Shown in pieces: positions 1,745 through 49,569 of a stretch of 64,000 nucleotides of DNA. Every line of letters starts with the position of its first letter. The stretch's first letter is position 1. The position numbers and the translations under genes were made by a program. Origin of the DNA: Actinomycetota bacterium (GTDB lineage Bacteria > Actinomycetota > UBA4738); NCBI GenBank assembly GCA_036847185.1, contig DAIUAM010000001.1, positions 68,989 through 132,988 on the forward strand, in the 5' to 3' direction. The notes beneath the pieces were generated by a model. That model was given only the letters and a program-made list of their open reading frames with translations, searched no databases and had not been told where the DNA came from.

Positions 1745-2599
1745 ATGCCCGGCTTCCCACTCGATGAACTCGGGTTCGCGGTCAACCGGGCCCTGGCCGA
1801 GGACGCTCCGGCAGGCGACCTGACCGCCCGCCTGACCATCCCGGTCCATGCCCGATGCACGGCCGGGATCGTCGCGAAGGGGACGGGGGTCCTGGCTGGA
1901 ACCGGCGTCGCCGAACGAGTGTTCGGTGAGGTTGCCCGGCAGGACGGAGCTGGTGCGATCACGGTGGAGTGGCTCGCCGCCGATGGCGACATGGTCGCGC
2001 CCGGCGACCTGGTGGCCCGGATCGAAGGGCCCGCTCGGTCGGTGCTTCGCGCCGAGCGGGTGGCGATCAACTTCCTCTCCCACCTCTGCGGGGTGGCCAC
2101 GCTGACCCGGGCGTTCGTCGAGGCGGCCGGGCCAGGGGTGACGCTCCTCAACACCCGCAAGACGATCCCCGGCCTGCGGGCGCTCGAGCGGGAGGCAGTC
2201 GTGGCCGGGGGTGGGACGCTCCATCGGGCCTCGCTCTCCGACGCCGTCCTCATCAAGGACAACCACCTCCGGATCGCCGGCGGCGTGCACGAGGCCGTCT
2301 CCCGGGCGAAGGCGGGCGGCGTCCCCGTCGAGGTGGAGGTGGAGTCGATGGAGGAGCTGGATGAGGCCCTGGCTGCCGGCGCCGACCGCATCCTGCTCGA
2401 CAACCCGACGCCGGAGCTGGTTCGCCGGGCCGTTGCCCGGGTCGGCGACCCGATGCGGCTGGAGATCTCGGGGGGTGTTTCCCTCGATTCGATACAATCG
2501 TTGGTGCAGGCGGGGGCGCGGGTCATCTCCGTGGGAAGGATTACCCACTCCGCTCCCTCGCTGGACCTCTCCCTCGAGGTGACGCATGCAGAGGTATGA
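1745..2599 (+). CDS. nadC: Nicotinate-nucleotide pyrophosphorylase (quinolinate phosphoribosyltransferase)
   Basis: 284 aa with ATG at 1745. The protein has [42 protein letters not shown], a central QPRTase signature, and LLDNPTPEL. It is followed by nadA and nadB. Confidence 0.9.
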
Positions 2600-3572
2600 C
2601 GAGTGGGCGAGGGAGGTCCGCAGGCTCGCCGGCGAGCGACGTGCGGTCATCCTGGCCCACAACTATCAGGTCCCCTGGATCCAGGATGTGGCCGACTTCG
2701 TCGGCGACTCACTGGCCCTGTCACGGCAGGCGGCCGAAACGGACGCCGACACCATCGTGTTCTGCGGCGTCCACTTCATGGCAGAGACCGCCAAGATCCT
2801 CTCCCCTTCCAAGACCGTCCTGTTGCCCGACCTGGCTGCAGGATGCTCGCTGGCCGACGCGATCACCGGCGCGGACGTGCGGGCGTGGAAGGCCGAACAT
2901 CCCGGCGCGGCGGTCGTGGCCTACGTCAACACCACGGCCGAGGTGAAGGCCGAGTCCGACATCTGCTGCACGTCCTCCAACGCGGTCGAGGTGGTCCGCT
3001 CGATCCCCCAGGATCGCGAGATCCTCTTCCTCCCCGACATGTTCCTAGGCGCGCACGTCGAGCGGATGACCGGCCGGTCGATGCACGTGTGGATGGGCGA
3101 GTGCCACGTCCACGCTGGCATCGCCCCCCAGGAGCTCCGCGCGAAGGCCGAGGCCGACCCCCGCGCCGAACTGCTCATCCATCCGGAGTGCGGCTGTTCG
3201 ACGCAGGCCCTGTATCTGCTCAGCGAGGGCGTGCTGCCGGCGGACCGAACCAAGATCCTCTCCACCGGCGGGATGGTCGCCGAGTCGCACCGCTCCGACG
3301 CCACGAAGTTCCTGGTCGCCACCGAGACCGGCATCCTGCACCAGCTCCGCAAAGCCAACCCTGGGAAGGTGTTCGAACCGGTCAACGAGTTCGCGGTATG
3401 CCGGTACATGAAGACGATCACCCCCGAGAAGCTGCTTCGGTCGCTCCGGGAGATGGTCTTCGAGATCACGGTGCCGGAGGACGTGCGCAAGCGCGCCGCG
3501 CTCGCCGTGGAGCGGATGATCGCCGTGAGGCCCATCGCTGGTGTGTCGGTCCCGGCCGCGGCGGCAGTGTGA
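2586..3572 (+). CDS. nadA: Quinolinate synthase
   Basis: 328 aa starting [72 protein letters not shown]. Conserved Cys residues for the [4Fe-4S] cluster are present. The start overlaps the nadC end by 14 nt. Confidence 0.9.
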
Positions 3573-5137: not shown

Positions 5138-7522
5138 ATGAACCGACTCCGATGGGCAGTTGCCCTCTTGGCGCCGGCCATCGTCGCGGAAGCATGCACG
5201 AGCTCCCCTCCCAAGCCCGGGCCCGTGCATAAGAACCTGCCGTTCGCGCGTGGCGGCACACTCCGCTTCACGCTGTTCGGCTGGGACGACCACGCGTCCG
5301 GGCTGACCTCGGAAGATGGCAGGGGCTACTACGCGCTTGACCCGCAGACCGACGGCGGCCCGGCGTGGGAGCTGTTTCGGTGCTGCCTGGTCCGAACCCT
5401 CATGTCATACAACGGACGGCCGACCTCCCAGGGTGGAGCCGACCCGAGGCCGGACCTCGCAGCCGGCCTTCCGACCGTCTCTGCCGACGGTCTCGTCTGG
5501 ACGTTCAAGCTGAAGCGGGGCATCGACTACGCGCCGCCCTTCCAGCACACGGAGATCACCGCCCAGGACTTCATCCGGGCCATCCAGCGCGGGCTCTCTC
5601 CCAGTCTTCGCCGCAACGACGCCGGGACAGGGTTCCTGCCCATCAACGCCGAAATCGATTATCTGTACGCCCCGATCCTGGGCGCGAAGGGGTACGAGGA
5701 GGGCGCCACCCGGACGATCGCGGGGTTGGAGGCACCGGATCCGCACACACTCGTGATCCACCTCACGGACCCCACCGGAGACTTGTCCTACCGCTTGGCG
5801 ATGCCGTTTACCGCTCCGATCCCCCCCAGCCCGACCGACCCGACCGCTCCCTTGGGGGCGGCCACCGGGCACAGCGGTGGTGACGGTCCCTTCCTGGTGG
5901 CCTCGGGTCCGTACATGATCGAGGGCTCGAACCGCATGGACTTCCGCAAGCCCCCCGAGCAGCAGGTCGGGGCGAGCGGCTATGTCTACGGGATCTCGCT
6001 CACGTTGGTGCGGAACCCCTCCTGGGTCCCGTCGACGGACGCACTACGAGCCGCCTATCCGGACCGCATCGAGATGACCCTTGACAACGGAGACGGCACG
6101 GTCCACGAGCGCGAGGCGTCGGACCTCGAGGCCGGGCGGGCGGATATCGCCTACTTCGACGAGGGTGCCAGCCAGGATGATCCTCTCCTGAAGAAGTACT
6201 TGGGGGACCCGGCCCTGAGGAAACGGCTGTTCATCTACCCCGCGGACTACCTGAACTGGATGACCCTCAATCTGGCGATGCCTCCCTTCGACGACATCCA
6301 CGTTCGAAAGGCGGTCAACCTCATCCTCGACAAGACTGCGGTCGCCGAGCTCAACGGAGGGCATGTCGAGGGGGACCCAGCCGGCCACCTGGCGTTCGAT
6401 AGCCTAGAGGACGACCTGCTCCTCAACTACGACCCATACCACTCGCCGGCGGCCCGGGGCGACCTCGCGGCAGCCGAAGCCGAGATGCGGCGATCCGGAT
6501 ACGATCGAAACGGTGACGGGCGATGCGATGACCCCTCGTGTCGTTCCATCCAGGTCTGGGTGGGCGACTTCCCGTACGACGCGGACCTCTTTCAGGTCAT
6601 CCGCTCGGGGTTGGCCCGGATCGGGCTCGTCCTCACGGAGAAGAAGATTCCGGTGGACGAGTACTTCACGGCGACCGAGGACCCGCAACGCGAACCGACG
6701 CTTCATCTGCCGCTGATCCTGGACGCGAGGGGCTTCAAAGACTTCCCCAGCGGCTCGAACTTCTTCGGCCGTTCGTTCGGTGAAGGTGCCTTCGACACGT
6801 CGCTGATCGGGGCCGCGCCCCAGGACCTCCGCCGGTGGGGGTATCAGATCACGTCGGTGCCGAGCGTCGCCGCTCGTGTCCGGGCGTGCGAGATCCTCGT
6901 TGGAAACGCCCAGCCGAGATGTTGGGCCGAGCTCGATCAGTTCCTAATGGAAGAGGTGGTGCCCTGGGTGCCTCTGGTGGTGCACAACCGGCAGCGCTTC
7001 ATCTCGGACCGCGTGTTGAGCTTCGGCTACGACCAGTTCACAACCCTGCCCGCCCTCGACCGGATCGCCCTTCGCCCCCGCACCGAACCGGCTCCTCGTC
7101 CGACTCCTTCGATCGGCCCGATTCCGCCGATCCCGGATGGCGTGTATCGGTTCACGGTCACCGCGGCGGACTTCAAGAGGTTCCGGGGGGCGGAGGACCC
7201 CGATAGTCTCCGAGAGAACACTGGGACCGTCACGATCACGATGCGTAGCGGCCGATACGAGCAGGTCATGACCGGCGACCACCCGTTCTTCGCGCCGATC
7301 TCGCTCGGGCATTACTCGGGCTCCGGGGACACGGTGCGGTTCACCACCGACCTTCCTTCGTTCAACGTCCTCACCACGCCGCCCATCCGGTGGACCTTCG
7401 ACGGCCACCGATTGCACTTCACCTTCTTGAGTTGCGAGGGCCTTCATGACCCCGAAAACCCCACATTCTGTCAGGACGTCAAGGTGTTCTACGAGGCGCA
7501 TCCATGGGAGAAGGTCGGATGA
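5138..7522 (+). CDS. ABC transporter substrate-binding protein, family 5 (peptide/nickel-type), lipoprotein-like, with extra C-terminal domain
   Basis: 794 aa. The signal peptide MNRLRWAVALLAPAIVAEAC ends in Cys. An SBP_bac_5-like core includes LIYPADYLNWMTLNLAMPPFDDIHVRKAVNLILDK. A Pro-rich linker (PRTEPAPRPTPSIGPIPPIP) is followed by an additional ~170-aa domain. A purine-rich RBS ggggaaagggggga lies upstream of the ATG. Confidence 0.8.
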   Translation: MNRLRWAVALLAPAIVAEACTSSPPKPGPVHKNLPFARGGTLRFTLFGWDDHASGLTSEDGRGYYALDPQTDGGPAWELFRCCLVRTLMSYNGRPTSQGGADPRPDLAAGLPTVSADGLVWTFKLKRGIDYAPPFQHTEITAQDFIRAIQRGLSPSLRRNDAGTGFLPINAEIDYLYAPILGAKGYEEGATRTIAGLEAPDPHTLVIHLTDPTGDLSYRLAMPFTAPIPPSPTDPTAPLGAATGHSGGDGPFLVASGPYMIEGSNRMDFRKPPEQQVGASGYVYGISLTLVRNPSWVPSTDALRAAYPDRIEMTLDNGDGTVHEREASDLEAGRADIAYFDEGASQDDPLLKKYLGDPALRKRLFIYPADYLNWMTLNLAMPPFDDIHVRKAVNLILDKTAVAELNGGHVEGDPAGHLAFDSLEDDLLLNYDPYHSPAARGDLAAAEAEMRRSGYDRNGDGRCDDPSCRSIQVWVGDFPYDADLFQVIRSGLARIGLVLTEKKIPVDEYFTATEDPQREPTLHLPLILDARGFKDFPSGSNFFGRSFGEGAFDTSLIGAAPQDLRRWGYQITSVPSVAARVRACEILVGNAQPRCWAELDQFLMEEVVPWVPLVVHNRQRFISDRVLSFGYDQFTTLPALDRIALRPRTEPAPRPTPSIGPIPPIPDGVYRFTVTAADFKRFRGAEDPDSLRENTGTVTITMRSGRYEQVMTGDHPFFAPISLGHYSGSGDTVRFTTDLPSFNVLTTPPIRWTFDGHRLHFTFLSCEGLHDPENPTFCQDVKVFYEAHPWEKVG

Positions 7523-7579
7523 GAACGATCCGGTTTGCCGCGGCTGGCCACGCTTGACCTGGTTCGGTACGCTGCCCTG

Positions 7580-8305
7580 ATGCCTTCGAGCCCTCCACCC
7601 GGCACGATCCTCGGCGTCTGGGCGCACCCGGACGACGAGACCTACCTGTCGGCCGGGATCATGGCGGATGCGGTCCGGCGCGGCGAGCGCGTGGTCTGCG
7701 TGACCGCTACCCGCGGCGAGGAGGGCTCGTGGGATGAGGAGCGCTGGCCCACGGCGACCATGGGCGAGGTCCGGGAAGGCGAACTGCTGCGGTCACTGGC
7801 GGCCCTCGGGGTGACCGAGCACAACTGGCTCGACTACTACGACGGCACGTGCGCGCAGGTGCCGAAGGACGAGGGCGTGGCCCGCGTCCGAACGTTCCTG
7901 CAGGAGGTTCGGCCCGCGGTCGTCCTGACGTTCGGGCCGGACGGGATGACGGGCCACGACGATCACAAGTCGGTCTGCGCGTGGACGACCGAAGCGTTCC
8001 AAAGCGCGGCCCCGGAGGGATCCCGCCTCTACTACGCGACCCAGACGCCCGAGTGGGCTGAGGAGTTCGTCCCGGTCATGAACCGCTTCAACGTGTTCAT
8101 GGAGGACGGGACGCCACCGGTCACGCCGCGCGACCAGCTCGCCATTGACTTCGAACTCACCCCCGAGCTGCTGGAACTGAAGCTTGCGGCGATCGAGGCG
8201 CACGAGAGCCAGGTCGAAGGCATGCTGAACGCCTTCGGCAAGGACTACTTCCGGCGAGCCATGAAGGCCGAATTCTTCCGCGGGGCGGAAGGCTCGGGCG
8301 GGTAG
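7580..8305 (+). CDS. PIG-L/LmbE family N-acetylglucosaminyl deacetylase
   Basis: The AHPDDE zinc-binding motif appears right after the start (MPSSPPPGTILGVWAHPDDETYLSAGIMAD). Internal ATG 7580 is preferred over TTG 7535. Confidence 0.75.
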   Translation: MPSSPPPGTILGVWAHPDDETYLSAGIMADAVRRGERVVCVTATRGEEGSWDEERWPTATMGEVREGELLRSLAALGVTEHNWLDYYDGTCAQVPKDEGVARVRTFLQEVRPAVVLTFGPDGMTGHDDHKSVCAWTTEAFQSAAPEGSRLYYATQTPEWAEEFVPVMNRFNVFMEDGTPPVTPRDQLAIDFELTPELLELKLAAIEAHESQVEGMLNAFGKDYFRRAMKAEFFRGAEGSGG

Positions 8306-8312
8306 TCCGCGG

Positions 8313-9287
8313 TCAGGAGCTCGGCGACACCGACGGCGACGGGGTGGCTTCGGCCTGCTGCAGGAGACGGCGGACCTCGGCGACGTGCGCGCCGTATGGG
8401 GCGGCCTGGAGGTACGACCGGAACGCGGCGGCGGCCGGTTCGGGCTGCTTCTTGCCGACCAGGAGGATGACGCCCTTGAAGTACAGCGCCTCCGGGTACG
8501 CGGGATCCACGGCCAGCGCTTGCTCCTCGAACAGCAGCGCGTCGTCCGTCTTCCCGGCCCGGAAGATCAGGAATCCGAGCTCCGCGTGCGCCTCGACGTT
8601 CTTGGGGTCCAGCTTCAGGGCGGCCAGGTACTGCGGGATAGCGCCCTTGGCATCCCCAGCCGCGAGGTAGCGCTGCGCGAGGTCCAGGCGGGCAGCCAGG
8701 TCGTTCGGATGGTCGGCCACGCGCTGCTCGAAGAACGAGAACGGGTCGCCGGCCGAAGGGGCGGGGATGCTACCGGAGACCGGGGCTCCCGGAGCCCGGT
8801 TGCGGACGGCCGTGATCAACAGCGGCACGACCAGCGCCACGGCGACCAGGCCGATCAGTGTGGGAGCCAGGGCGCGGGGGCGGCGGGGCGTCGGCTCCTG
8901 CGGTTCGTGGCCGTTGCGGCCGGAACCCGGAACGGTCTCCGCCCCGGTGGCGGGTCGCGGCGGGGTTCCCCGCCGGAGCCCACGGACCTCCTTCAGCGCC
9001 ACGCTCAGCTCGCCGGCACCATCCCGAGCCTCCAATGCCCGCAGCACCGCGACGGCCCGGGTCTCGGTCTCCGCCCGCAGGGCCAGGTAGGTGCCCTCGG
9101 CCAGCTCACCGGTGACGTGCTCCTCCTCCAGATCGCGCAGCGCGCGAAGGAGGCTGAGGCGTTCGTCCTCCAGCGGGTCGGCCAGGCGCTCCAGCCCGAC
9201 CTGCCGCGAGGAGCCGAACGGACGAAGCACCCCGGCGGCGGCCACCCCGGCCAGGACCATCGCGGCGAGGACGACCGCGAACGTCAT
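8313..9287 (-). CDS. ccmI: Cytochrome c-type biogenesis protein CcmI/CycH-like (two TM helices + TPR repeats)
   Basis: Real start ATG at 9287 (MTFAVVLAAMVLAG), 324 aa. A second TM segment LIGLVAVALVVPLLITAV is followed by TPR repeats (YLAAGDAKGAIPQYLAALKLDPKNVEAHAELGFLIFRAG...AYPEALYFKGVILL). ATGA overlap with the ccmH stop. The upstream 247 codons of ORF 8313..10028 were rejected. Confidence 0.7.
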   Translation of the reverse strand: MTFAVVLAAMVLAGVAAAGVLRPFGSSRQVGLERLADPLEDERLSLLRALRDLEEEHVTGELAEGTYLALRAETETRAVAVLRALEARDGAGELSVALKEVRGLRRGTPPRPATGAETVPGSGRNGHEPQEPTPRRPRALAPTLIGLVAVALVVPLLITAVRNRAPGAPVSGSIPAPSAGDPFSFFEQRVADHPNDLAARLDLAQRYLAAGDAKGAIPQYLAALKLDPKNVEAHAELGFLIFRAGKTDDALLFEEQALAVDPAYPEALYFKGVILLVGKKQPEPAAAAFRSYLQAAPYGAHVAEVRRLLQQAEATPSPSVSPSS

Positions 9288-9826
9288 TCGGGTTCGTCCT
9301 CCGCGCTGGCCAGGGCGCGCTCCAGGAGGCGTCGATCCGAAGGTGAGAGGGTCGAACCGCGACCCGGGAACCCAATCGAGTCCGCGGCGTCCGCGGCTCG
9401 GGATGGGGTTCGGCCCAGCGTCCAGCGCCGGATCGCGATGAGGGCCGCGACCAGGCCGCCCAGCAGCAGGAGCAGCGGCGCGATCCACGCCACGAGATCG
9501 ATCCCGCCACGGGGCGGCGACAACAGGATCCACTGCCCGTAGGCCGCGACGAACCGCGCGCGGATCTGGTCCGGGGTCCGGCCGGCCCGAAGGTCGCGAC
9601 CGATGGTGGCTCGCATACTCCCCGCCACCGCGGACGGCGAATCGGCCACCGAGAGGTTCTGGCATACGGGACAGCGCAGCCCGGAGGCGACCTGGTGGAC
9701 GCGGTCCTGGAGCGTCTCCGGCTGCGCGGGCCCGCGGGCCGCCACGAAGGCCAGGGCTCCCGCGGCCACCAACAGGATGGCGGCCAGGGCGACCGCTCCA
9801 CCTGTGCGTCGGGAGGCCGTCTTCAC
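9284..9826 (-). CDS. ccmH: Cytochrome c-type biogenesis protein CcmH/NrfF (heme-handling, CXXC)
   Basis: Signal/TM N-terminus then LRCPVCQNLSVADSPSAVAGSMR (CcmH LRCxxC motif) and a C-terminal TM segment. GTG start at 9826 in a GTGA overlap with the ccmG stop. Confidence 0.8.
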   Translation of the reverse strand: MKTASRRTGGAVALAAILLVAAGALAFVAARGPAQPETLQDRVHQVASGLRCPVCQNLSVADSPSAVAGSMRATIGRDLRAGRTPDQIRARFVAAYGQWILLSPPRGGIDLVAWIAPLLLLLGGLVAALIAIRRWTLGRTPSRAADAADSIGFPGRGSTLSPSDRRLLERALASAEDEPE

Positions 9827-10575
9827 CTCGCATCCCCCCGCAGCAGGGCGGTGATTCGGTCGGCGAGCAACCCGTAATCGACCGGACCGACCTGCTTGTA
9901 CGCCACTCGTCCGCCGGGCGAGATGACGAACGTCTCGGGCACGCCGTACACGCCGTAGGCGAGGGCGGTGCTCGATCCCGGATCGGCCGCCAGCGGCCAG
10001 TCCATGTGCAGCTCGGAGGCGAAAGCACGAGAGTTCGATGTCGGGTCCTCGAACGGGATGCCGATCAGCACCACGCCCTGGTCCCGGAACCGCTGCCACG
10101 TGGCCACCAGCGCGTTGTGTTCGATCCGGCAGTCGGTGCACCAAGAGGCCCAGAAGTTGATCACCACGACCTGTCCTCGGAACCGCCCGAGCCGGATCGG
10201 TGGCTGCCCCCCACCGGAGAGCGCGGGCAGGTCGAACCCCGGCGCGGGCTTGCCGGTCAGCGCCGAGTCGATTCGGTTCGGGTCGTTCCTCAGGCCGAAC
10301 CCGAACAGCGCCGTGAGCAGGGCCACCGCGCCGACGACCGAGCCGAACAGGATCCACCGGGAACGCCGCCGGCGGTGGGGCGGCCCGTCCTGCCCGAGCA
10401 AGGAGGGATGCACCGCGGTCTCGGCGCTTTCGGCCGGCTCGGCGCCCCCGGATGACGGAGCGGTGTCCGGCCCCGTCGGCGTCACCGGTTCGCCTTCATC
10501 GGACACCGGCCAGCTCCTTCTCGCGCGGAGCCGGCCGCAGCGGAACGCGCCGACGGCGGTCCGGCCAGGCGGCAA
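9823..10575 (-). CDS. ccmG: Thiol:disulfide interchange protein CcmG/DsbE (thioredoxin-like)
   Basis: TM anchor WILFGSVVGAVALLTALFG, then a thioredoxin fold with WASWCTDC (WCxxC) and GVPETFVISPGGRV. The start could instead be the GTG at 10506 just downstream of the ccmF stop. Confidence 0.85.
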   Translation of the reverse strand: MPPGRTAVGAFRCGRLRARRSWPVSDEGEPVTPTGPDTAPSSGGAEPAESAETAVHPSLLGQDGPPHRRRRSRWILFGSVVGAVALLTALFGFGLRNDPNRIDSALTGKPAPGFDLPALSGGGQPPIRLGRFRGQVVVINFWASWCTDCRIEHNALVATWQRFRDQGVVLIGIPFEDPTSNSRAFASELHMDWPLAADPGSSTALAYGVYGVPETFVISPGGRVAYKQVGPVDYGLLADRITALLRGDAR

Positions 10576-12493
10576 AGACGCCGCCCAGCGCCATCACGCC
10601 CCCGCCCACCCACAGCCACATCACGCCTGGGTTCAGGAAGAGCCGGAACGTCGCCTGCTGCCCGCCATTCACGAACCCCAGGACCGTCGTGTAGAGGTCA
10701 CGGAAGACGCCGTACTGGATCGAAGGGGTCCCGATCGGGTCGTTCGGCGCCGAGGGATAGAGGTTGAGCGAGGGGTGGACGAACCCCTCCACCCGCCGGT
10801 CCCGGAAGACCGTGAGGTCTGCGACCGTGACCGTGCGCTGCGGCTGCTGGACCACCCGGAAGCCGTCGTAGCGAAGGGCGTAGCCCTGGAACCGGACCTG
10901 CTGGCCCCTGGCCAGCGTCACCTCGGTCTGGTGGGCGAACGAGGTCGACACCGTGATGCCCGCCGCCGCCAGCGCCACGCCCAGGTGCACGACCAGACCC
11001 CCGTACAGCCTCCGGTTGCGCCCGAGCGCTCTCGGCACGGCCCTCGCCGGCCTGGTGCCGGTGGCCTTCGCGAAGGCCCGCACGCCCCGGAGGATCTCCC
11101 CGAGGTTCGCCACGAACACGAAGGCGGCCATGCCCAGGGCCGCGATCGCCGCAAGGTTCCGGAGGCCGGCCACGGCCAGAGCGGCGATCGTGAGCGCCCC
11201 CGCTGCCGACGGCACCGTCACCCGCCGACGTGCCTGTTCGGGCGTTGCGCTCCGCCACGGCAGCAGCGGGCCCACGCCCATGAGGAATAGCAACAGCAGG
11301 AACAGCGGGATGGTGGTCTGCCTGAAGTACGGCCCCCCCACCGTGACCTGGCGGTTCGTCAGCGCTTCGACGATCAGCGGGAAGATCGTCCCCAGCAGCA
11401 CGACGAACGTGATGCCCAGCAGGATCAAGTTGTTGCCGAGGAACGCCGATTCGCGGGACAACGCCGAGTCGAAGCGGCCCTCGGACCGCAGCCGCCAGGA
11501 CTGCGCGGCGATCAGGCCGAACCCTCCCAGCAGCACCAGCACCAGCAACCCGAGGTACATCGGGCCGACGGGCGACTTGGCGAACGCGTGGACGCTGGAC
11601 AGGATCGACCCGCGGGTGAGGAAGGTCCCGAACGTGGTCAGGGCGAAGGCCCCGACCACCAGCGAGAGGTTCCAGACCTTCAGCATGCCGCGGCGCTCCT
11701 GGATGACGACGGAATGCAGGAACGCGGTGGTCATGAGCCACGGCAGGAGCGCCACGTTCTCGACCGGGTCCCACGCCCAGTAGCCGCCCCACCCCAGCAC
11801 GTCGTACGACCACAGCGCGCCCAGCACCAGCCCGACGGTCAGCGCGATCCACGCGAACAACGCCCACCGCCGGGTCAGCCGCACCCACCGGTCCGACACC
11901 GTCCCGCTGATGAGCGCGGCCACGGCGAAGGCGAACGGCACGGTCATCCCGATGAACCCGAGGTACAGGAACGGGGGGTGGACGGCCATGAGCGGGTGGT
12001 TCTGAAGGAGCGGCAGCGGTCCCGCGCCATCGGCCGGAACGGTCGTGAACGTGGCGAACGGCCGGGTCGGCCCCAGGACCAGCACCAGGTAGAACACCGA
12101 CACGCCGAACAGCACGGCCATGGCCAGCGGGAAGGTCTCGGGCCTCCGCGTCCGGAACCGCCACGCGACGGCGGCGATGAACCCCGCCAGGATGAGGTTC
12201 CACAGGAGCAGTGAGCCCTCGTCCGCCGACCACAGCGCCAGGACCTTGAAGAAGGTCGGCGTGGCGCGGCTCGAGTTCTCGGCGACGTACTTGATCGAGA
12301 AGTCGTTGGCCAGGATGGCGGCCAGCATCGCCCCGTTCGCCGCCGCAACCACGCCCAACAGCGAGAACGCGGTCGTCCGGGCGCTCTCCACCAGCAGGGC
12401 GTTTCGCTTCCGCCACCCGATCACCGACGCGGCCAGACCGTACAGCGACAGCATCAGGCCGAGGATCAGCGCGAACGTCCCGAGCCTGCTCAT
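10496..12493 (-). CDS. ccmF: Cytochrome c-type biogenesis heme lyase CcmF
   Basis: 665 aa polytopic membrane protein with the WWD-domain signature WGGYWAWDPVEN and conserved His residues. ATG at 12493 is immediately downstream of the ccmE stop. Confidence 0.9.
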   Translation of the reverse strand: MSRLGTFALILGLMLSLYGLAASVIGWRKRNALLVESARTTAFSLLGVVAAANGAMLAAILANDFSIKYVAENSSRATPTFFKVLALWSADEGSLLLWNLILAGFIAAVAWRFRTRRPETFPLAMAVLFGVSVFYLVLVLGPTRPFATFTTVPADGAGPLPLLQNHPLMAVHPPFLYLGFIGMTVPFAFAVAALISGTVSDRWVRLTRRWALFAWIALTVGLVLGALWSYDVLGWGGYWAWDPVENVALLPWLMTTAFLHSVVIQERRGMLKVWNLSLVVGAFALTTFGTFLTRGSILSSVHAFAKSPVGPMYLGLLVLVLLGGFGLIAAQSWRLRSEGRFDSALSRESAFLGNNLILLGITFVVLLGTIFPLIVEALTNRQVTVGGPYFRQTTIPLFLLLLFLMGVGPLLPWRSATPEQARRRVTVPSAAGALTIAALAVAGLRNLAAIAALGMAAFVFVANLGEILRGVRAFAKATGTRPARAVPRALGRNRRLYGGLVVHLGVALAAAGITVSTSFAHQTEVTLARGQQVRFQGYALRYDGFRVVQQPQRTVTVADLTVFRDRRVEGFVHPSLNLYPSAPNDPIGTPSIQYGVFRDLYTTVLGFVNGGQQATFRLFLNPGVMWLWVGGGVMALGGVFAAWPDRRRRVPLRPAPREKELAGVR

Positions 12494-13054
12494 CTAGCCC
12501 CCGGTCACGTGCGCCGACGTTGGGGTCACCCCCGGAGCGGGCGGCGTGTAGTTGTCGCTGTGCTTGACCAGAACCGTGTCCGCATGGAACGCGCCATCCC
12601 GCCCGTAGTACCCCTCGACCACGACGCCCTGTCCCGCCCGGAACAGGGACGGCACCCCGCCGCTGTCCACGACCGACATCCGGGTGGTCTCGTCGCTGAC
12701 GACGAACGTGATGTCCCGTCCCTTCGTCTGCACGGTTCCCGGCAGGACGAGCCCGCCCAGCCGGACGCGCTGACCGACCAGCGTCTGCCCCGACCGCAGG
12801 ATCTCGGTCGGCGTCTTGTAGTAGACGAGGTTCCCGCCCAGGCCGCGCGCCAGCACCCAGATCAGCGCGCCGGCGATCACCGCCAGCACGATGGCGATCC
12901 GTCCCTTCTTCACGGTTCGTCTTCCCGCATCTCTCGCGGCTTCCGGGGCGGCCCGGCTCGCCGCTTCAGGTCGAACGTCCACGCCGTACGGCGATGGCCG
13001 CGTTACGAGCCCTGGCCCGGCGGGCCCGCGCGAACAACCTGGCCAGGTAGCCAC
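12494..13054 (-). CDS. ccmE: Cytochrome c-type biogenesis heme chaperone CcmE
   Basis: Single TM IAIVLAVIAGALIWVLA and an OB-fold region. The C-terminal heme-binding motif LVKHSDNYTPP supplies the His and Tyr residues. GTG start. Confidence 0.85.
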   Translation of the reverse strand: MATWPGCSRGPAGPGLVTRPSPYGVDVRPEAASRAAPEAARDAGRRTVKKGRIAIVLAVIAGALIWVLARGLGGNLVYYKTPTEILRSGQTLVGQRVRLGGLVLPGTVQTKGRDITFVVSDETTRMSVVDSGGVPSLFRAGQGVVVEGYYGRDGAFHADTVLVKHSDNYTPPAPGVTPTSAHVTGG

Positions 13055-13122
13055 CCAGCGCAGCGACCGTCACCGCATAGGCCGCGATCACGTAGCCGAT
13101 GTTGTTCGGCGCAGCGCCGAGT

Positions 13123-13902
13123 TCAGCCACGCGCGGAAACCTCCTTCGGTGCGGGCGGGGTCGGCGGCGGCTCGACCGGGGCAGATCGCGGTTCGAGCCG
13201 CGGAGAGAGCGCCTCGCTGATCGCCCGATCCTCCAGGCGCCCGACCCGCAGGCGGAACGTCACCAGGTACGCGTACAGCAGAGTGAACGCCGCCACCCCG
13301 ACCAACAAGCCCGCGGCCATGCTTGCCGCCATGCGGGGCGCGACGTGCAGGAGGGCCGGGGCCTGGTGCTGCGACCGCCACCAGGTCACCGAGAGATGCA
13401 CGATCGGCACGTCGACGAAGGCCACGATCCCGATCGCCGCCGACCACCGGGCCCGCTTCGCCGGGCTGTCCGGGAGGCGGCGAACGGCCAGGTAGCCCAC
13501 GTAGATCAGGAACAGCACCGCCGTGGTGGTCAGGCGCGGGTCCCACGTCCACCAGATCCCCCATGTCGGCTTGGCCCAGATCGAACCGAGCACCAACGTC
13601 AACCCGATGAACAGCACCCCGACCTCGGCGGAGGCGGCCGCCAGCCGGTCCCACCTGATCCGCTTCGTCGCCAGGTAGGCCACGCTCGCCGCGAACACGA
13701 TGAAGAAGGAGAGATAGGCCAGCCAGGCCGAAGGAACGTGCACGTAGATGATGCGGAACACGTTGCCCTCGTCGGCGTCGGGAGGTGTGACCCACAGGCC
13801 CAGCACGGCCGTGGCGATCACGCCGGCCGCGGCGAGCAGGCCGAGCACCTTCTCGCCCCTCCGGGCGGTGAGCCTGCCCATCATCCGTTCGGCGGTGCTC
13901 AT
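13123..13902 (-). CDS. ccmC: Heme exporter protein CcmC
   Basis: Internal ATG at 13902 ([11 protein letters not shown]), six predicted TM helices, and the WGxxWxWD tryptophan-rich motif [12 protein letters not shown]. The upstream 95 codons of ORF 13123..14187 overlap ccmB and were rejected. Confidence 0.85.
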
Positions 13903-13912
13903 GGGACGTGCC

Positions 13913-14587
13913 TCAATCCTCCAGCAGGTAGGGATAGACCAGCGTACCGGCTGCCAGGAACACCAGGTCGAACGCCACCAGCAGTCCCAGCCACCCACCG
14001 GCCTGACCGCCTCGCCCCGTCGTCGCCAGGCTGGTGGCCTTGACTCCCGCCACCAGGACCGGCGTGGCCAGCGGCAGCACCAGGAGCGGGAAGATCGCCT
14101 CCCGAGCCCGCGGGGATTCGGCCAGGACGCCGAACAGCGACCCCACCGCGGCCAGCCCGACGGTCCCCAGCACGAACGCGCCGGCAAGCACGAAGGGCGC
14201 CCCCCCGAGCGACAGGTCGAACAGCCCCACGACCAGCGTGATCACCGCGACCTCCAGCGCCAGGAGCTGCGCGGCGACGGCCGCGGCCTTGCCCAGGAAC
14301 ACGGCGGCCTTGTCCATCGGCGCCAGCAACAACCCCTCCAGGGCTCCGTCCTCTCCTTCGGCCTCGTAGGCCCGGCGGAACGCCAGGACGGATGCGAAGA
14401 GCACCGCCAGCCACAGCAGGCCGGGCGCGGTTTCCTGGAGGAGCGTGCGTCCCGGGCCCAGAGACAGCCCGAACACGATTAGCAGGGTCCCCGCGAACGG
14501 CAGGATCGCGCTCAGCGCGTAACGTCCGCGAAGCTCGATCCGCAGGTCCTTGGCCGCCATGGCCACGCTCTGCCGAAGGAGGTTCAC
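13913..14587 (-). CDS. ccmB: Heme exporter protein CcmB (ABC permease)
   Basis: 224 aa polytopic membrane protein of CcmB family length and hydropathy. Its start overlaps the ccmA stop by 4 nt. Confidence 0.8.
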   Translation of the reverse strand: MNLLRQSVAMAAKDLRIELRGRYALSAILPFAGTLLIVFGLSLGPGRTLLQETAPGLLWLAVLFASVLAFRRAYEAEGEDGALEGLLLAPMDKAAVFLGKAAAVAAQLLALEVAVITLVVGLFDLSLGGAPFVLAGAFVLGTVGLAAVGSLFGVLAESPRAREAIFPLLVLPLATPVLVAGVKATSLATTGRGGQAGGWLGLLVAFDLVFLAAGTLVYPYLLED

Positions 14588-15291
14588 GAGGAAGCCGACC
14601 CTGCGGGGACCAGCCGTCCGCCGTCCATGAGCAGTGTCCTCCCGGCCATGTCTCCCCGGCCCGGGTCGTGCGTGGCCAGGATCACCGTTCGGCCTTCGGC
14701 TCCCGCATCCCGCACCGCGTCGTCCACGACCTCCTTGGCTTCTTCGTCCAGCCCCGCGTACGGCTCGTCAAGGAGCAGGAGCTCGGGACGGCGGAGCAGC
14801 GCCCGGGCGACGGCGACCCGCTGGCGCATCCCCTGCGAGTAGCCGGACACCCGGTCGTCGGCCGCGTCGGCCAGACCCGCCCGCTCCAGCGCCGGCCCGA
14901 CCCGCGATGGGTCGAGGCCGTACAGCGTGCACACGAACCGCAGGTTCTCCCGCGCCGTCAGGTCTTCGTACAACCGCGTGCGGTGCCCGAGCAGCTCGCA
15001 TCGCCGCCGGATCTCGTCGCGGTCGCGAAGGAGATCGAACCCGAGCACCGAGCCGCTCCCGTAGGTCGGCGAGAGGGCCGTGGCCACGATCCGGAGTAGC
15101 GTGCTCTTCCCGGCGCCGTTCGGCCCCCGCAGCAGCAGCGTCTCTCCCCGTTCGACCCGGAGGCCCACCCGGACCACAGCCGGGGCGACGCCGAACACGC
15201 GCGTCACGCCCGACAGCAGGACGGCCGGAGTGGCCGGGTCGGCCGCCGGGCTGCCATGGGTGCGCGGAGCGTCCACGGTGCGGGGAATCAC
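14584..15291 (-). CDS. ccmA: Cytochrome c biogenesis ABC transporter ATP-binding protein CcmA
   Basis: Walker A GPNGAGKST, ABC signature SGYSQGMRQRVAVARAL, Walker B LLLLDEP and H-loop ILATHD. GTG start at 15291 chosen (VIPRTVDAP...). The upstream 190 codons of ORF 14584..15861 are Arg/Ser/Cys-rich junk overlapping the next gene. Confidence 0.78.
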   Translation of the reverse strand: MIPRTVDAPRTHGSPAADPATPAVLLSGVTRVFGVAPAVVRVGLRVERGETLLLRGPNGAGKSTLLRIVATALSPTYGSGSVLGFDLLRDRDEIRRRCELLGHRTRLYEDLTARENLRFVCTLYGLDPSRVGPALERAGLADAADDRVSGYSQGMRQRVAVARALLRRPELLLLDEPYAGLDEEAKEVVDDAVRDAGAEGRTVILATHDPGRGDMAGRTLLMDGGRLVPAGSASS

Positions 15292-15364
15292 GCAGGCCAA
15301 GGCTACCGCAGAGCCCTTCCCTGTGAGGCATCGAGGAACCGCGTCGCCCCGGCCGGTCTTTAGG

Positions 15365-16753
15365 TCATCCGGAGGGTGACGAGCAGCTGGCCAGCCAGTC
15401 CTCGACGCCACCGCGGGCGACCGCACGGACCGGGATGCCCGCCCCGGCCAGCAAGCTGGCCGCCATGGCCGAACGGTGCCCGGAGGCGCAGATCGTCCAC
15501 ACCGGTCCTTCGAGCCCCAGCTCGGCAACCTGGGGCAGGCGTTCGGGAAGGTCGCCGACGAACAGGTGCACGCTGTCCGGGATCCGGCCGGCGTCCCATT
15601 CGCCCTGCTGACGGACGTCCAGCACGGCCGGTCCCCGCCCCGACCGGATCTCCCGGCAGAGATCGTCGACGGTTGCCACCGGATAGCTCGCCAGCTCCAG
15701 GCCGGCCCGGTGCCATGCTTCGACCCCACCGTCCAGGAACCCGAGCACGTGCTCGTACCCGACCCGCAAGAGCTGGATGACCGTTTCGGTCGCGGCGCCG
15801 GACGGCTCGAACGGCAGGACCAGCACCAGCGGCGCGTCGAAGGGCACCAGCCAGCCGACATAGCTGCCGAACGCAGGGTCGAGCTCGACGTTCAGCGAGC
15901 CCGGGATGTGGGCGCCGGCGAACGCCTCCCTCGCGCGGGCATCGACCACCCACACCCCCGAACCCAACAGCCCGGCGGCCCGTTCTGGAGTGAGCGCCGG
16001 CAGCTTCGGGATCGAACCGAGCACGCGAGGACCGGCGCGGTTGATGACGGCCATGTGGCGGTAGTACGCGGGAAACGAGGGCAGGCCCTCCAGCGCCTCG
16101 CGGACGAACGTCTGCTCGTCCGGCGCCCGGAGCGCGGCGTTCCCGTCATGTTCGGCACCGATCGTCGATGACCGGGACTTCGGCGCCGGGCCGGCCCCGC
16201 AGAAGCTGCCGGCGCCGTGCGTAGGGAGCACCCGGGTGTCGGCGGGCAGCGCGGCCAGACGCCGCAGGGTCCGGAACTGGGCCCGGGTCGATCCATCGGT
16301 CTGCTCCGGCCCCAGGAGGTCGGTTCGGCCGGCCCCGCCGACCATGAGGCTTCCCCCCGAGAACACGGCGGCCGGCTCCTCCACGCCGTCCTCGAACACG
16401 AGGTACGCGAGGTGCTCCGGCGTGTGCCCGGGCGTCTCCATGGCCACCAGCCGGATGCCGCCGAACCGCACCTCGTCGCCTTCGCGCAGCGGCCGGTGAT
16501 CGAACGCGTACCGACCCCTTGCCGGCGCGCCGATCTCAGCCCCGGTGGCGTTGCGAACCTCCACCGCGCCCGACACGTAGTCGTTGTGCACGTGCGTCTC
16601 CAGCACGAACCGGATGGCCACGTCCCGGCCGGCGGCTCGGGCCAGGAACCTGCCCGCGTCCCGTTGCGGATCGATCAGCGCCGCTTCACCGCCCGAGCTG
16701 ACGAGATACGTGGTGTCGCCGAGCCCGCGGGTCACGATCAGGTCGAGGTCCAT
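15365..16753 (-). CDS. MBL-fold metallo-hydrolase fused to two rhodanese domains (persulfide dioxygenase/sulfurtransferase-like)
   Basis: ATG 16753 (MDLDLIVTRG). The MBL motifs HVHNDYVSG and ETPGHTPEH are present. Two rhodanese modules follow, the second with the active-site Cys loop ICASGHRSAMAA. Confidence 0.8.
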   Translation of the reverse strand: MDLDLIVTRGLGDTTYLVSSGGEAALIDPQRDAGRFLARAAGRDVAIRFVLETHVHNDYVSGAVEVRNATGAEIGAPARGRYAFDHRPLREGDEVRFGGIRLVAMETPGHTPEHLAYLVFEDGVEEPAAVFSGGSLMVGGAGRTDLLGPEQTDGSTRAQFRTLRRLAALPADTRVLPTHGAGSFCGAGPAPKSRSSTIGAEHDGNAALRAPDEQTFVREALEGLPSFPAYYRHMAVINRAGPRVLGSIPKLPALTPERAAGLLGSGVWVVDARAREAFAGAHIPGSLNVELDPAFGSYVGWLVPFDAPLVLVLPFEPSGAATETVIQLLRVGYEHVLGFLDGGVEAWHRAGLELASYPVATVDDLCREIRSGRGPAVLDVRQQGEWDAGRIPDSVHLFVGDLPERLPQVAELGLEGPVWTICASGHRSAMAASLLAGAGIPVRAVARGGVEDWLASCSSPSG

Positions 16754-17114
16754 GACACTTCTCCGGCAGCCGGATGAGCGTGCCGAACGGCCCACGGGCG
16801 GGGCATCGGCGATCCTCAGGCTATCTCATCGCCTGTGGAAGGCGAAGCGTCTTGATTTGCGGGATCTCTCGGGCCCGCGCGAGACTGGTCCGGCCCGCGC
16901 CCGTCCACGCCCCGGGCCCGCGCGATGCCCGTGAACCGCACGACCGACGAACGGAGGGCGCCCACGCATCGCCGTCCCAGCCGCCACCGAGTCACCCGGT
17001 TGCTGTCGGCGTCGCCACCGCTGACCTTTTTTCCGCCGGGGGTGGGTCAAGCCCGCCGGATGGGGAAGAAAAGAGTGTCGGGTGGCCGACATAGTCTCCG
17101 GATCGAAGGTCCCC

Positions 17115-17519: not shown

Positions 17520-18287
17520 CTAGTCCAACCCGTCCGGCCCGTCCGGCCCGTCCGGCCCGGTCGAACCGTTCGGCCCGATGAGCCGCTCGTACTCCTCGCG
17601 AACCGCCGCGTAACACTCGCACGACGCCTCTTCGAGCGCCGCCCGATCCAGCACTGTGATGTGACCCCGCCGGTAACGCACCAGGCCCGCGTTCTGCAAC
17701 GTGCGGGCAGCCACCGTGACCGACGGGCGGGTCACCCCCAACATGTCCGCCAGGAACTCCTGGGTCAGTTCGATCTCATCGCCCTCGACCCGGTCGTGGG
17801 TCTCCAGGAGCCACCGGGCGCACCGCTGCTGGATCTCGTGGGCACCGTTACACGCCACGCTCTGGGAGATCTGGGCGAACACCACCTGGGTGTAGGCGAA
17901 CATGAGCGAGGGGAGCTTGCCTTCGGCCACCATCTCGGCCCGGAAATGGTCCACGTCCATGGTCAGGCACTCGCCGGGGACCTGCGCCATCGCGATGAAG
18001 TGGCCCAAGCTCCCACCCCCGAACAGAGCGTGCACACCGACCATGCCCTCGCGTCCGATGGTGGCGGTCTCGAGCGCCCGGCCATCCGCCAGGGGGATCA
18101 TCAGCGAGATCACGCCCGACAGGGGGAAGTAGACCTTGCGGATCCGCGCCCCGGGCTCGACGAGCATGTCGTGCGGCGTGAGCGGCATTCGAGCCATGCT
18201 CGAGGCGAGGTGGTCGCGCTCTCCGTTCGGGAGTTCGGCGAGCAGGCGATTGCGCGCGAGATCCGACGCGCGAAGAGGAGACGACAT
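17520..18287 (-). CDS. Crp/Fnr family transcriptional regulator
   Basis: cNMP-binding beta-roll (YFPLSGVISLMIPLADGRALETATIGREGMVG) plus C-terminal HTH (TQEFLADMLGVTRPSVTVAARTLQNAGLV). The C-terminal tail has a GPDGPDGPDG repeat. Confidence 0.8.
   Translation of the reverse strand: MSSPLRASDLARNRLLAELPNGERDHLASSMARMPLTPHDMLVEPGARIRKVYFPLSGVISLMIPLADGRALETATIGREGMVGVHALFGGGSLGHFIAMAQVPGECLTMDVDHFRAEMVAEGKLPSLMFAYTQVVFAQISQSVACNGAHEIQQRCARWLLETHDRVEGDEIELTQEFLADMLGVTRPSVTVAARTLQNAGLVRYRRGHITVLDRAALEEASCECYAAVREEYERLIGPNGSTGPDGPDGPDGLD
17529..17560. repeat. Tandem 9-nt repeat (cccgtccgg x3.5) encoding GPD tripeptide repeats at the Crp regulator C-terminus
   Basis: Direct reading of ccaacccgtccggcccgtccggcccgtccggcccgg. 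It is in frame with the minus-strand Crp-family gene tail ...GPNGSTGPDGPDGPDGLD*. Confidence 0.6.
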
Positions 18288-19596: not shown

Positions 19597-20457
19597 ATGT
19601 CCCCTCCGGCCTCCCCGTCGCCCGCTCCGCTCCGCCGCCCCACCGCGCCGGTCCGGGTCCTGGCGGTCCGGGACGGCCAGAGCTTCGAACGCCCCGATCG
19701 GCTGGCCGCCGAGGAGCCGATGGAGGTCCGGGTCGGCGGGCCGGGCCAGGAGCCCATGAGCGTGGCCGTCACCATGCGGACCCCCGGCCATGACTTCGAG
19801 CTGGCCGCGGGGTTCCTGTACACCGAAGGCCTGGTGCGGTCGCGCGATGAGATCGTCTCCGTGAACTACTGCGAGCTCCCCGCCGAAGAACAGCAGTACA
19901 ACGTGGTGACCGTTCGGCTGGCTCGGGCCTTCGACCTGGGCACCAACGCTCGGAACTTCTTCGCCAACTCGAGCTGCGGCATCTGCGGAAAGGCATCGTT
20001 GGACCACGTCCGGGTGAGCTGCCCATCGCTGCCGCCGGGACCGGTGGTGGCCGGATCGGTGATCGTCTCCCTCCCCGGCCGGCTCCGCGAGGCGCAGCGG
20101 ATCTTCGAGGAGACCGGCGGACTCCACGCCGGGGGGCTGTTCGAACCGGACGGGACGCCGGCCGCGGTGCGCGAGGACGTGGGACGGCACAACGCGCTGG
20201 ACAAGCTGGTGGGGTGGGCGCTGCTTGGGGACGGGCTGCCGTTGTCCGGCCGGATGCTCCTGGTGTCCGGACGGGTGAGCTTCGAGATCGTCCAGAAGGC
20301 GGCCGTTGCGAGGATCCCACTGATCTGCGCGGTCTCCGCGCCGTCGAGCCTCGCGGTAGCCGCGGCCGAGGAGCTCGGGGTAACCATGGCCGGTTTCGTC
20401 CGGGGCGGATCCTTCAACCTGTACAGCCATCCGGAGCGCGTCGACCTGGGAAGCTAG
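19597..20457 (+). CDS. fdhD: Formate dehydrogenase accessory sulfurtransferase FdhD
   Basis: 286 aa with the FdhD/NarQ signature SSCGICGKASLDHV and GRHNALDKLVGWALL. Confidence 0.9.
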   Translation: MSPPASPSPAPLRRPTAPVRVLAVRDGQSFERPDRLAAEEPMEVRVGGPGQEPMSVAVTMRTPGHDFELAAGFLYTEGLVRSRDEIVSVNYCELPAEEQQYNVVTVRLARAFDLGTNARNFFANSSCGICGKASLDHVRVSCPSLPPGPVVAGSVIVSLPGRLREAQRIFEETGGLHAGGLFEPDGTPAAVREDVGRHNALDKLVGWALLGDGLPLSGRMLLVSGRVSFEIVQKAAVARIPLICAVSAPSSLAVAAAEELGVTMAGFVRGGSFNLYSHPERVDLGS

Positions 20458-32327: not shown

Positions 32328-33530
32328 CTACCGGTCGACGTCCCCCACGACGAAGAACACGCTCCCCAGCACGGCGATGAGGTCCGGCACCAGCGCGCCA
32401 GGCAGCAGCGCCGGGATCATCGACACGTTCGAGAACGAAGCGGTTCGCATCTTCATCCGGTAGGGGAACTCCCCGCCGTCACCCACCAGGTAGTACCCCA
32501 TGAGCCCCAGCGGGTTCTCGGTCCGCACGTAGATCTCGCCCTCCGAGGGCTTGATCTTCTTGGGGAGCTTCGGGTTGATGTACTGGCCGGGGGGGAGCTT
32601 GTCCAGGCACTGTTCGATGATCTTGCAGGACTCCCACATCCGCCGGACCAGCACCCACAGCCGGTCGTAGCAGTCGCCGTTCTGGCCGACGGGGACGTCG
32701 AACTCGACCTCGCCGTATTTCTCGTACGGCGCGTCCTTCCGGGCGTCCATCGCCACGCCACTCGCCTGCAGGACCGGACCGGAACACCCGTAGGAGGTGG
32801 CCACCTCGGGCGCCAGCACGCCGATCCCCTTCGTCCGGGCGGCGATGATCTCGTTGCCCATCACCAGGTTGTCGAAGTCGACCAGCTTCTTGCGGACCCA
32901 CGTCAACGTCTCGCCGGCCCGCTTCAGGAACCCCCGGGGAAGATCGTCCTTCAGCCCGCCGACCCGCGCGTACGAGTGGTGCATGCGGGCGCCGGTCGCG
33001 GTCTCCATGAGGTCCTGGATCATCTCCCGCTCGCGGAACGCGTAGAACACCGGCGTCATCGCACCCAGCTCGAGCGGATAGGAGCCGCAGAACATCAGAT
33101 GGTTCAGCAGGCGGTTCCATTCGGCCATCATCGTGCGGATCCACTGGGCCCGCTCCGGGACCTCCACGCCGATCAGGCGCTCGCAGGCGATGACCCACCC
33201 CAGCTCGTTGTTGAAGGCCGAAAGCCAATCGTGCCGGTTCATCAGCACCAGGACCTGGCGGGTGTCCCGGTACTCGACGAGCTTCTCGGCCGCCCGGTGC
33301 ATGTAGCCGATGACCGGTTCTGCCCGGATGATCTTCTCTCCGTCCAGCTCCAGGACCACCCGGAGCACCCCGTGCGTCGATGGGTGCTGCGGCCCGATAT
33401 TGAGGATCATCTCCTCGGCGTGGAGCGGACCTTCAGTGATGATGTCGATGCCGCCACCGCGGAGCATCCATGCGTCGCTGGCGGCCGTGAACGCGGCCTG
33501 CTGGCGAACCAGGTCCTCCCGGGTGTCCAT
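32328..33530 (-). CDS. nuoD: NADH-quinone oxidoreductase subunit D homologue (49-kDa/Nqo4-type), orphan copy
   Basis: The protein reads MILNIGPQHPSTHGVLRVVLELDGEKIIRAEPVIGYMHRAAEKL ... RVGGLKDDLP ... C-terminal. It is full-length NuoD-like. ATG 33530 chosen, with 33605 as an alternative. No other nuo genes flank it. Confidence 0.85.
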   Translation of the reverse strand: MDTREDLVRQQAAFTAASDAWMLRGGGIDIITEGPLHAEEMILNIGPQHPSTHGVLRVVLELDGEKIIRAEPVIGYMHRAAEKLVEYRDTRQVLVLMNRHDWLSAFNNELGWVIACERLIGVEVPERAQWIRTMMAEWNRLLNHLMFCGSYPLELGAMTPVFYAFREREMIQDLMETATGARMHHSYARVGGLKDDLPRGFLKRAGETLTWVRKKLVDFDNLVMGNEIIAARTKGIGVLAPEVATSYGCSGPVLQASGVAMDARKDAPYEKYGEVEFDVPVGQNGDCYDRLWVLVRRMWESCKIIEQCLDKLPPGQYINPKLPKKIKPSEGEIYVRTENPLGLMGYYLVGDGGEFPYRMKMRTASFSNVSMIPALLPGALVPDLIAVLGSVFFVVGDVDR

Positions 33531-33794
33531 CGAAGCCGAAGCGTACCAGAGCACCGCTGTCCGGCTCGTCGCCCGCGAGCGGGACGCGCTACCGTCACCC
33601 GCCATGGACTTCTCGATCCCCCCCGGAGGATCAGGAACTCGTGACCGGCCTCCGCTCGTTCATCGATCGCCAGGTCCGTCCGGTCGAAGATTCCAGCCCG
33701 AGATCCAGCGGCTCGTCATCGCCCGCTCGCTCGGCCTGTAGCCCGGTCGGGTGACCGGTCGGGCCGCTCCGACCGGCTGCTACATTCGCAGCCG

Positions 33795-35470: not shown

Positions 35471-35481
35471 CCCGCCCGGAG

Positions 35482-46836: not shown

Positions 46837-46902
46837 TGGGCCCTCGATTGTAGGGGCCGATGTTCCCGTCCCGGCAGGCGCCGTCGCCTAGAGTTGACCG
46901 CC

Positions 46903-49402: not shown

Positions 49403-49569
49403 GGTAGGCAGGCGGCCGTGCCGGGCGAATAGCCCATCGTTGCCATTTTCCCTGCCCGAAATGGCCTGGTCCGGGCAGATCCAGCTCAGGGTTCGCCCTG
49501 CCCAAACGTCTCATCGCACGGTAAGCTCAGGTCCGACCACGACGAGAGGCACGTACCCCGTGATCCGCG

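Follow-up and report, generated by a model that had tools for sequence, protein, structure and literature searches.

Why does an actinobacterium carry a cytochrome c maturation system that reviews place in other organisms? In those accounts System II serves Gram-positive bacteria, while System I is found in proteobacteria, Deinococci, archaea, and plant mitochondria (PMC3884852, PMC3601427), and Corynebacterium glutamicum uses ResB/ResC/CcdA/ResA (PMC9145763). The question arises from a 64,000-nucleotide (nt) stretch of an Actinomycetota bacterium (GTDB UBA4738; assembly GCA_036847185.1, contig DAIUAM010000001.1, positions 68,989 to 132,988), which we call the window and in whose coordinates its features are given. 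On its minus strand, positions 8313-15291 hold a set of nine genes, ccmABCDEFGHI; our analysis confirmed that the set is intact and uninterrupted and that the catalytic motifs are all intact. Gene content, motifs, synteny, and conservation could be observed directly, and together they indicate that the region is very probably a functional, canonical System I operon native to an uncultured lineage of soil and permafrost Actinomycetota with high guanine-plus-cytosine (GC) content.

Genes were identified from a listing of open reading frames (ORFs) at 7000-17000, together with Pfam and NCBIfam scans, and their boundaries were refined against gene calls made independently for 12 public contigs, each encoding an identical CcmF. 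These contigs, on which the gene calls are identical, include the metagenome-assembled genome (MAG) GCA_036783625.1 and Nunavut permafrost metagenomes. All nine ccm families were detected, that of ccmI through positional orthologues only. A preliminary description of this DNA had proposed a complete System I set made up of eight minus-strand genes. The ORFs, the family matches, and the conserved motifs bear out the completeness of the set, and the motifs quoted at that time, including LRCPVC, are all present in the translations. Each of the eight genes lies at the position it had been given, but the true count is nine, ccmD being the addition. Neighboring genes overlap by 4 nt (ccmA/ccmB, ccmG/ccmH, and ccmH/ccmI), 8 nt (ccmC/ccmD), or 11 nt (ccmF/ccmG); ccmB and ccmC are separated by 10 nt and ccmD and ccmE by 52 nt, while the ccmE stop codon directly abuts the ccmF ATG. 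This tight coupling counts in favor of an operon. A scan of the operon for promoters and terminators yielded nothing beyond shuffled expectation.

Heme handling and release fall to the products of ccmA, ccmB, ccmC, and ccmE. ccmA (14584-15291), for the ATPase subunit of the heme-releasing CcmAB(CD) complex, encodes 235 amino acids (aa) from a probable GTG start, longer extensions of the ORF being possible. The protein matches ABC_tran (PF00005, 4.6e-28) and the ccmA model TIGR01189 (3.8e-36, with 124.6 bits against a cutoff of 131.6), and its Walker A motif reads GPNGAGKS. CcmB, the membrane subunit of the ATP-binding cassette (ABC) complex (13913-14587, 224 aa), has about 6-7 hydrophobic segments and matches PF03379 (5.7e-35) and, below the cutoff, TIGR01190 (1.9e-17). 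The WWD-domain heme-handling protein CcmC (13123-13902, 259 aa) matches TIGR01191 (5.8e-47) and aligns to the E. coli CcmC chain 7F02_C of the CcmABCD structures (1.7e-27), with both the WWD motif WGIWWTWD and the two flanking histidines (YVHVP and PIVHLS) conserved. CcmE, the membrane-anchored heme chaperone (12494-12913, 139 aa), has an N-terminal transmembrane (TM) anchor and the His-type motif VKHSDNY (HxxxY); it matches PF03100 (6.5e-27) and NF009727 (5e-33), the alignment beginning at residue 46 of the maximal ORF.

The preliminary description had seen no ccmD, with only 68 nt between ccmC and ccmE, and this claim did not survive. The gap appeared so short because the longest ccmE ORF, starting at 13054, had been taken. 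In that ORF, matches to the NCBIfam CcmE models begin only at residue 46-50, and 12913 is where gene callers place the ccmE start. With this start, the interval between ccmC and ccmE is 209 nt and is filled by a ccmD-like ORF (12966-13130, 54 aa) that begins with GTG, has its own ribosome-binding site, GAAGGAGG, 8 nt upstream, and is called as a gene on the identical public contigs. Its predicted product has the architecture of a single-helix subunit, one TM helix and, after it, a tail rich in Arg, and its matches to PF04995 (2.7e-4; 21.4 bits against a cutoff of 25.6) and TIGR03141 (5.7e-4) are weak but specific. Seeded with this ORF, a jackhmmer search recovered small ORFs from 47 related loci, which span several phyla, each in the corresponding position. 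In a curated alignment of these proteins, 11 of 29 members match PF04995 (best 4.6e-6), the only family matched recurrently; a profile search with the alignment against the PDB gave no match. Judged by its sequence and position, we accept the ORF as ccmD, which makes this a nine-gene operon.

The remaining genes encode proteins for heme ligation. CcmF (10496-12493, 665 aa), the heme lyase or holocytochrome c synthase core, matches PF16327 (CcmF_C, 1.9e-67) and PF01578 (4.8e-29) and aligns over its full length to Thermus thermophilus CcmF (6ZMQ, 1.2e-127), to our knowledge the only solved CcmF. Conserved between the two are AVHPP (P-His1), the WWD motif WGGYWAWDPVEN, AFLHS (TM-His1), SVHAF (P-His2), and VVHLG (TM-His2), where we take the names of the histidines to follow the E. 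coli numbering. The heme-ligand histidines and the WWD motif are all common to proteins from different phyla. CcmG/DsbE (9823-10506, 227 aa), a membrane-anchored thioredoxin-like reductase, matches AhpC-TSA (1.2e-22), Redoxin (3.6e-18), and, under the cutoff, the DsbE model TIGR00385 (8.3e-26); it carries the active site WCTDC as well as GVPETF, and its single TM segment follows a 49-aa N-terminal tail. CcmH (9284-9826, 180 aa), the thiol-disulfide partner of CcmF, has two TM segments, matches PF03918 (1.5e-27), and aligns to structures 2KW0 and 2HL7, with LRCPVCQN included in the alignment.

The last gene (8313-9287, 324 aa) encodes a CcmI-like protein, a putative apocytochrome chaperone with tetratricopeptide repeats (TPRs). 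Its topology comprises a first TM segment (residues 1-17), a charged cytoplasmic loop, a second TM segment (137-153), and an extracytoplasmic TPR domain, with matches to TPR_11/16/17/19 at residues about 185-310. The window copy gave no match to the CcmI model TIGR03142 at E<=0.01, and its PDB matches are generic TPR proteins. In most related loci, however, the ccmH stop codon is overlapped by a gene that encodes 240-330 aa, and 8 of 16 of these positional orthologues match TIGR03142 (best 7.1e-8).

These features place the operon among known systems. The nine predicted functions are those of Rhodobacter capsulatus and Paracoccus, which have ccmABCDEFGH and a separate ccmI, and of E. coli ccmABCDEFGH. 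CcmH and the CcmI-like protein are encoded separately, which is also the arrangement in most proteobacteria (PMC3601427). The window shares with proteobacterial System I a His-type CcmE (HxxxY), the WWD motif and histidines of CcmC and CcmF, the LRCxxC of CcmH, and the CxxC of CcmG. It differs in its actinobacterial and presumably monoderm host, in having all genes in one operon ordered ABCDEFGHI, in the divergence of its proteins, which miss most NCBIfam equivalog cutoffs, in the N-terminal cytoplasmic tail of CcmG, and in a short CcmD that lacks a sequence-level PDB match. System I*, found in archaea and sulfate reducers, has a Cys-type CcmE (CxxxY) and no CcmH (PMC3601427, PMC9084895). Although its CcmABCEF core is common to the window, we rejected a System I* assignment; since the window CcmE has HSDNY of the HxxxY type and CcmH is present, as are CcmG and a CcmI-like protein, the system is canonical System I.

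Is the operon at home in this genome? The preliminary description had offered two explanations, a deep-branching lineage or lateral acquisition. In a scan that took one genome from each GTDB species, the closest CcmF proteins come from three Actinomycetota MAGs, with 74, 62, and 57% identity, beyond which identities are 44-48% for Gemmatimonadota, many Acidimicrobiales and Iamia MAGs, Limnocylindria, and others. A large protein collection contains more than 120 clusters with full-length CcmF 69-78% identical to that of the window, almost all of them from soil metagenomes; the few members with organism names are Actinomycetota, as are all named close relatives. Since these clusters are so numerous, so similar, and so largely from soil metagenomes, the operon appears to be the norm in an abundant uncultured lineage, and the window CcmF is closer to these uncultured Actinomycetota (57-78% identical) than to Thermus CcmF. 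The gene order ccmABC(D)EFGH(I) is kept in nearly all related loci. The ccm operons of Acidimicrobiia (Acidimicrobiales, Iamia) belong to the same phylum and share the gene order and the small ORF between ccmC and ccmE; they differ in that their CcmF is 45-48% identical and forms a separate clade and in that no flanking genes are common with the window. The closest homologues of CcmF thus come essentially from the same actinobacterial group, and the view that System I is unexpected here holds only in part: reviews do assign System II to Gram-positive bacteria, but more than 120 soil clusters and the Acidimicrobiia carry System I. Two relatives depart from the usual arrangement. One locus (L002:8966-15568) is split, with ccmEFGHI on one strand and ccmABCD inverted immediately downstream, so that the two parts are convergent. 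In the "Actinomycetales bacterium" MAG whose CcmF is 57% identical (L001, about 6990-8550), about 1.5 kb lie between ccmB and ccmC.

Conservation extends to the chromosomal neighborhood. Upstream of ccmA by 73 nt and on the same strand (15365-16795) lies a gene for a fusion of a metallo-beta-lactamase with a double rhodanese, which resembles persulfide dioxygenase/sulfurtransferase fusions. A contig whose CcmF is 75% identical (the contig that carries P0057) has the order metallo-beta-lactamase-rhodanese, ccmA-I, peptidase S51, PIG-L, nadB, nadA, nadC, and the window flanks match it except that a solute-binding protein replaces peptidase S51. Another relative (L003) likewise has the fusion gene in the same position and shares nadA as a neighbor. 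The same neighbors are therefore kept in relatives with 74-75% identical CcmF. The fusion gene may be co-transcribed with ccm and linked to thiol or sulfide redox.

A neighbor-joining tree of CcmF (100 bootstraps) bears on whether the operon arrived by relatively recent transfer from a Gram-negative or otherwise non-actinobacterial donor such as Gemmatimonadota, Chloroflexota, or Proteobacteria. The window CcmF and four Actinomycetota sequences form a purely actinobacterial clade of five with 100% bootstrap support, nested in no other sampled phylum, and the Acidimicrobiia sequences form a separate clade, also at 100%. Some observations speak for transfer. Beyond the three closest MAGs, the window CcmF is as similar to the proteins of Gemmatimonadota (44-48% identity) as to those of Acidimicrobiia; the tree contains no single actinobacterial CcmF clade, as the window clade joins Acidimicrobiia with 38% bootstrap and Limnocylindria with 13%; and Ccm genes have moved between domains (PMC9084895). 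However, there is no compositional anomaly. GC is 0.70-0.72 both within and outside the operon, and GC at third codon positions (GC3) is 0.86-0.95 for ccmG, ccmF, and ccmE (the three ccm genes scored in the frame scan) versus 0.82-0.92 for flanking genes. No mobile-element genes were seen beside the operon, its insertion site is kept in relatives whose CcmF differs by 25%, and soil metagenomes contain more than 120 diverged relatives. Since the clade is purely actinobacterial and not nested in another phylum, recent transfer is unsupported, and we consider it very unlikely; the lateral acquisition suggested earlier finds no backing in the native GC and GC3, the conserved flanks, or the tree. 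Given the conserved site, the actinobacterial clade, and the diverged relatives, any transfer would have been ancient, no later than the lineage's own origin. Our reading from these comparisons is that the operon is vertically inherited within the lineage. The neighbor-joining tree does not separate ancient transfer from ancestral presence, and a deep-branching lineage is plausible.

Several observations weigh against a functional operon native to this lineage. The low bootstrap values at the base of the window clade bear on its deep origin. Several NCBIfam equivalog models (CcmA, CcmB, CcmC, CcmE, CcmF/NrfE, and DsbE) scored under their curated cutoffs, and the window copies of ccmD and ccmI are backed by position, architecture, and family-level matches, not by above-threshold matches of their own. 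Within the 64-kb window, we found no gene for a c-type cytochrome (in-frame CXXCH) and none for CcdA/DsbD; the only GC3-supported window ORFs with at least three hydrophobic segments are ccmB, ccmC, ccmF, and an NfeD protein. Because the gene for the CcdA/DsbD reductant is commonly unlinked in other organisms, it may lie elsewhere in this genome. The scores under the cutoffs indicate that the ccm proteins are divergent from the proteobacterial seed sequences. They would also be compatible with a decaying remnant that no longer matures cytochromes, but none of the nine ORFs is interrupted, the catalytic Cys, His, and WWD residues are conserved without exception, and full-length homologues with 69-78% identity persist in more than 120 clusters. 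We regard decay as extremely improbable, and a working, native operon as the far better account.

How might such an operon work? We infer its activity and substrates from the homologous systems of E. coli, Rhodobacter, and Thermus, taking the standard Ccm mechanism as described (PMC3601427, PMC9616876, PMC10457321, PMC10746174). CcmC and CcmD would present heme, through the WWD domain and two His ligands, to membrane-anchored CcmE, which would bind it covalently through the His of HxxxY. ATP hydrolysis by CcmAB would then release holo-CcmE. The TPR protein CcmI would capture the apocytochrome, and CcmF (with its WWD domain, four conserved histidines, and a b-heme), CcmH (LRCxxC), and CcmI would form the two thioether bonds to CXXCH. 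CcmG, through its CxxC, would keep the cysteines of the apocytochrome and of CcmH reduced, with electrons from a CcdA/DsbD-type protein encoded elsewhere.

Relatives suggest what the substrates may be. In one genome with 70% identical CcmF (L085, GCA_975305695.1; 1949-6206), the ccm operon divergently adjoins ctaE-qcrC-qcrA(QcrA_N)-qcrB-ctaG, the actinobacterial bcc operon, and the QcrC encoded there has two CXXCH motifs and a C-terminal anchor. The contig carrying P0057 (JGI 3300067032; genes 1-2642 of the listed locus) encodes COX1 and a COX2-cytochrome c fusion, a caa3-type CtaC, about 5 kb upstream of ccmA; we know of no such fusion in model Actinomycetes. Since the ccm operon abuts ctaE-qcrCAB in L085, diheme QcrC is a likely substrate. 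We therefore regard two proteins as the likely substrates: QcrC of the actinobacterial bcc complex, a membrane-anchored diheme protein, and the CtaC-cytochrome c fusion.

The association with qcrCAB also bears on whether the genome encodes System II (ResB/ResC/CcdA/ResA) as well, in which case ccm would be a second, specialized pathway, for example for multiheme or low-heme-affinity substrates or as an Nrf-type lyase. The Actinomycetes studied so far generally use System II (PMC9145763, PMC3884852), our search for it covered the 64-kb window only, and CcmF and CcmH also match the models for NrfE and NrfF. These matches are far under the cutoffs, with 420 bits against 927 for NrfE (TIGR03145) and 53 against 159 for NrfF (TIGR03147), and the general components ccmABCDE and ccmG are part of the operon; as the window contains no nrfA or other in-frame CXXCH gene, we rejected a dedicated NrfEFG lyase. 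Neither ResB nor CcsA/ResC was found within the window, where the WWD proteins are CcmC and CcmF only, and in L085 the operon adjoins the housekeeping qcrCAB genes. In most bacteria, one system or the other is present, not both. On balance, two coexisting systems seem unlikely, and we infer that System II is probably absent from the genome.

Comparison with System II clarifies what differs. In Corynebacterium, Mycobacterium, and Streptomyces, System II yields the same product, holocytochrome c, and the substrate class is probably the same (QcrC). CcmC and CcmF are distant relatives of CcsA in their WWD domain, as seen in weak TIGR03144 matches and in PDB matches to CcsA. The machinery is otherwise entirely different, as System II has neither a CcmE chaperone nor an ABC release step. 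We lean slightly toward a broader proposal, that System I has fully displaced System II throughout this uncultured, presumably monoderm lineage and is the sole route for both diheme QcrC (bcc-aa3) and caa3-type CtaC. If so, the lineage would be a natural case of Ccm operating without an outer-membrane-bounded periplasm and, in some members, in physical linkage with qcrCAB. The mechanism itself is not new, and the host group is unusual, not unique.

At least two large actinobacterial groups, Acidimicrobiia and the soil and permafrost lineage, have a complete, conserved System I. This is further evidence that assigning System II to Gram-positives fits the model class Actinomycetes and Bacillota, not all Actinomycetota. 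Public annotation pipelines already label the proteins of these relatives CcmF, and a 2026 MAG survey reported Ccm System I as enriched in a MAG set rich in Actinomycetota and Pseudomonadota (PMC13590888). We found no literature statements specific to System I in Actinobacteria, Acidimicrobiia, or Thermoleophilia. The findings are of modest relevance to annotating the respiratory potential of abundant uncultured soil Actinomycetota, to reconstructing the early distribution of Systems I and II in Terrabacteria, and to proposals for selective targeting of cytochrome c biogenesis.

The rest of the window speaks to the host. Its genes include an AdnAB-like helicase-nuclease pair, a tandem ArsA-like ATPase (46729-49077), and, with this ATPase lying upstream, an 89-aa WhiB-like gene (49133-49402, minus strand) that is divergent from a gene for a class A penicillin-binding protein (PonA) with two C-terminal PASTA domains (49362-51950, plus strand), whose maximal ORF slightly overlaps the WhiB-like gene. 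These genes support an actinobacterial host and, together with the named relatives, agree with the actinobacterial synteny noted in the preliminary description. As to class, a 4-aa insertion in NadA at positions about 138-180 has been reported as specific to all Thermoleophilia (PMC6544083). Compared with three archaeal NadA structures, the window NadA (2586-3572, plus strand) has only +1 and -2 residues at about 138-180, which counts weakly against Thermoleophilia as the host class, the comparators being archaeal, not bacterial. Around residues 205-225, the same comparison shows about 13 inserted aa.

Near the metallo-beta-lactamase gene, a Crp/Fnr-family regulator is encoded at 17520-18287 (minus strand). 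The lack of any PDB match at E<=1e-10 sets it apart from close orthologues of mycobacterial Crp, and we draw no synteny argument from it. Genes for SelA and SelB, the selenocysteine synthase and elongation factor (33908-37338, plus strand), and for FdhD (19597-20457, plus strand) imply a selenoprotein formate dehydrogenase; Rfam and ARAGORN searches of the window found no tRNA-Sec and no rRNA, the only tRNA being tRNA-Pro. A stand-alone NuoD-like gene (32328-33605, minus strand; Complex1_49kDa, 2.1e-87) has no obvious nuo neighbors, and its product may be a subunit of a hydrogenase or of a formate hydrogenlyase-type complex. Lastly, a 1207-aa protein encoded at 56100-59723 (minus strand) combines N-terminal zinc ribbons with an adenylate/guanylate cyclase domain, an AAA_16 ATPase, and TPRs.

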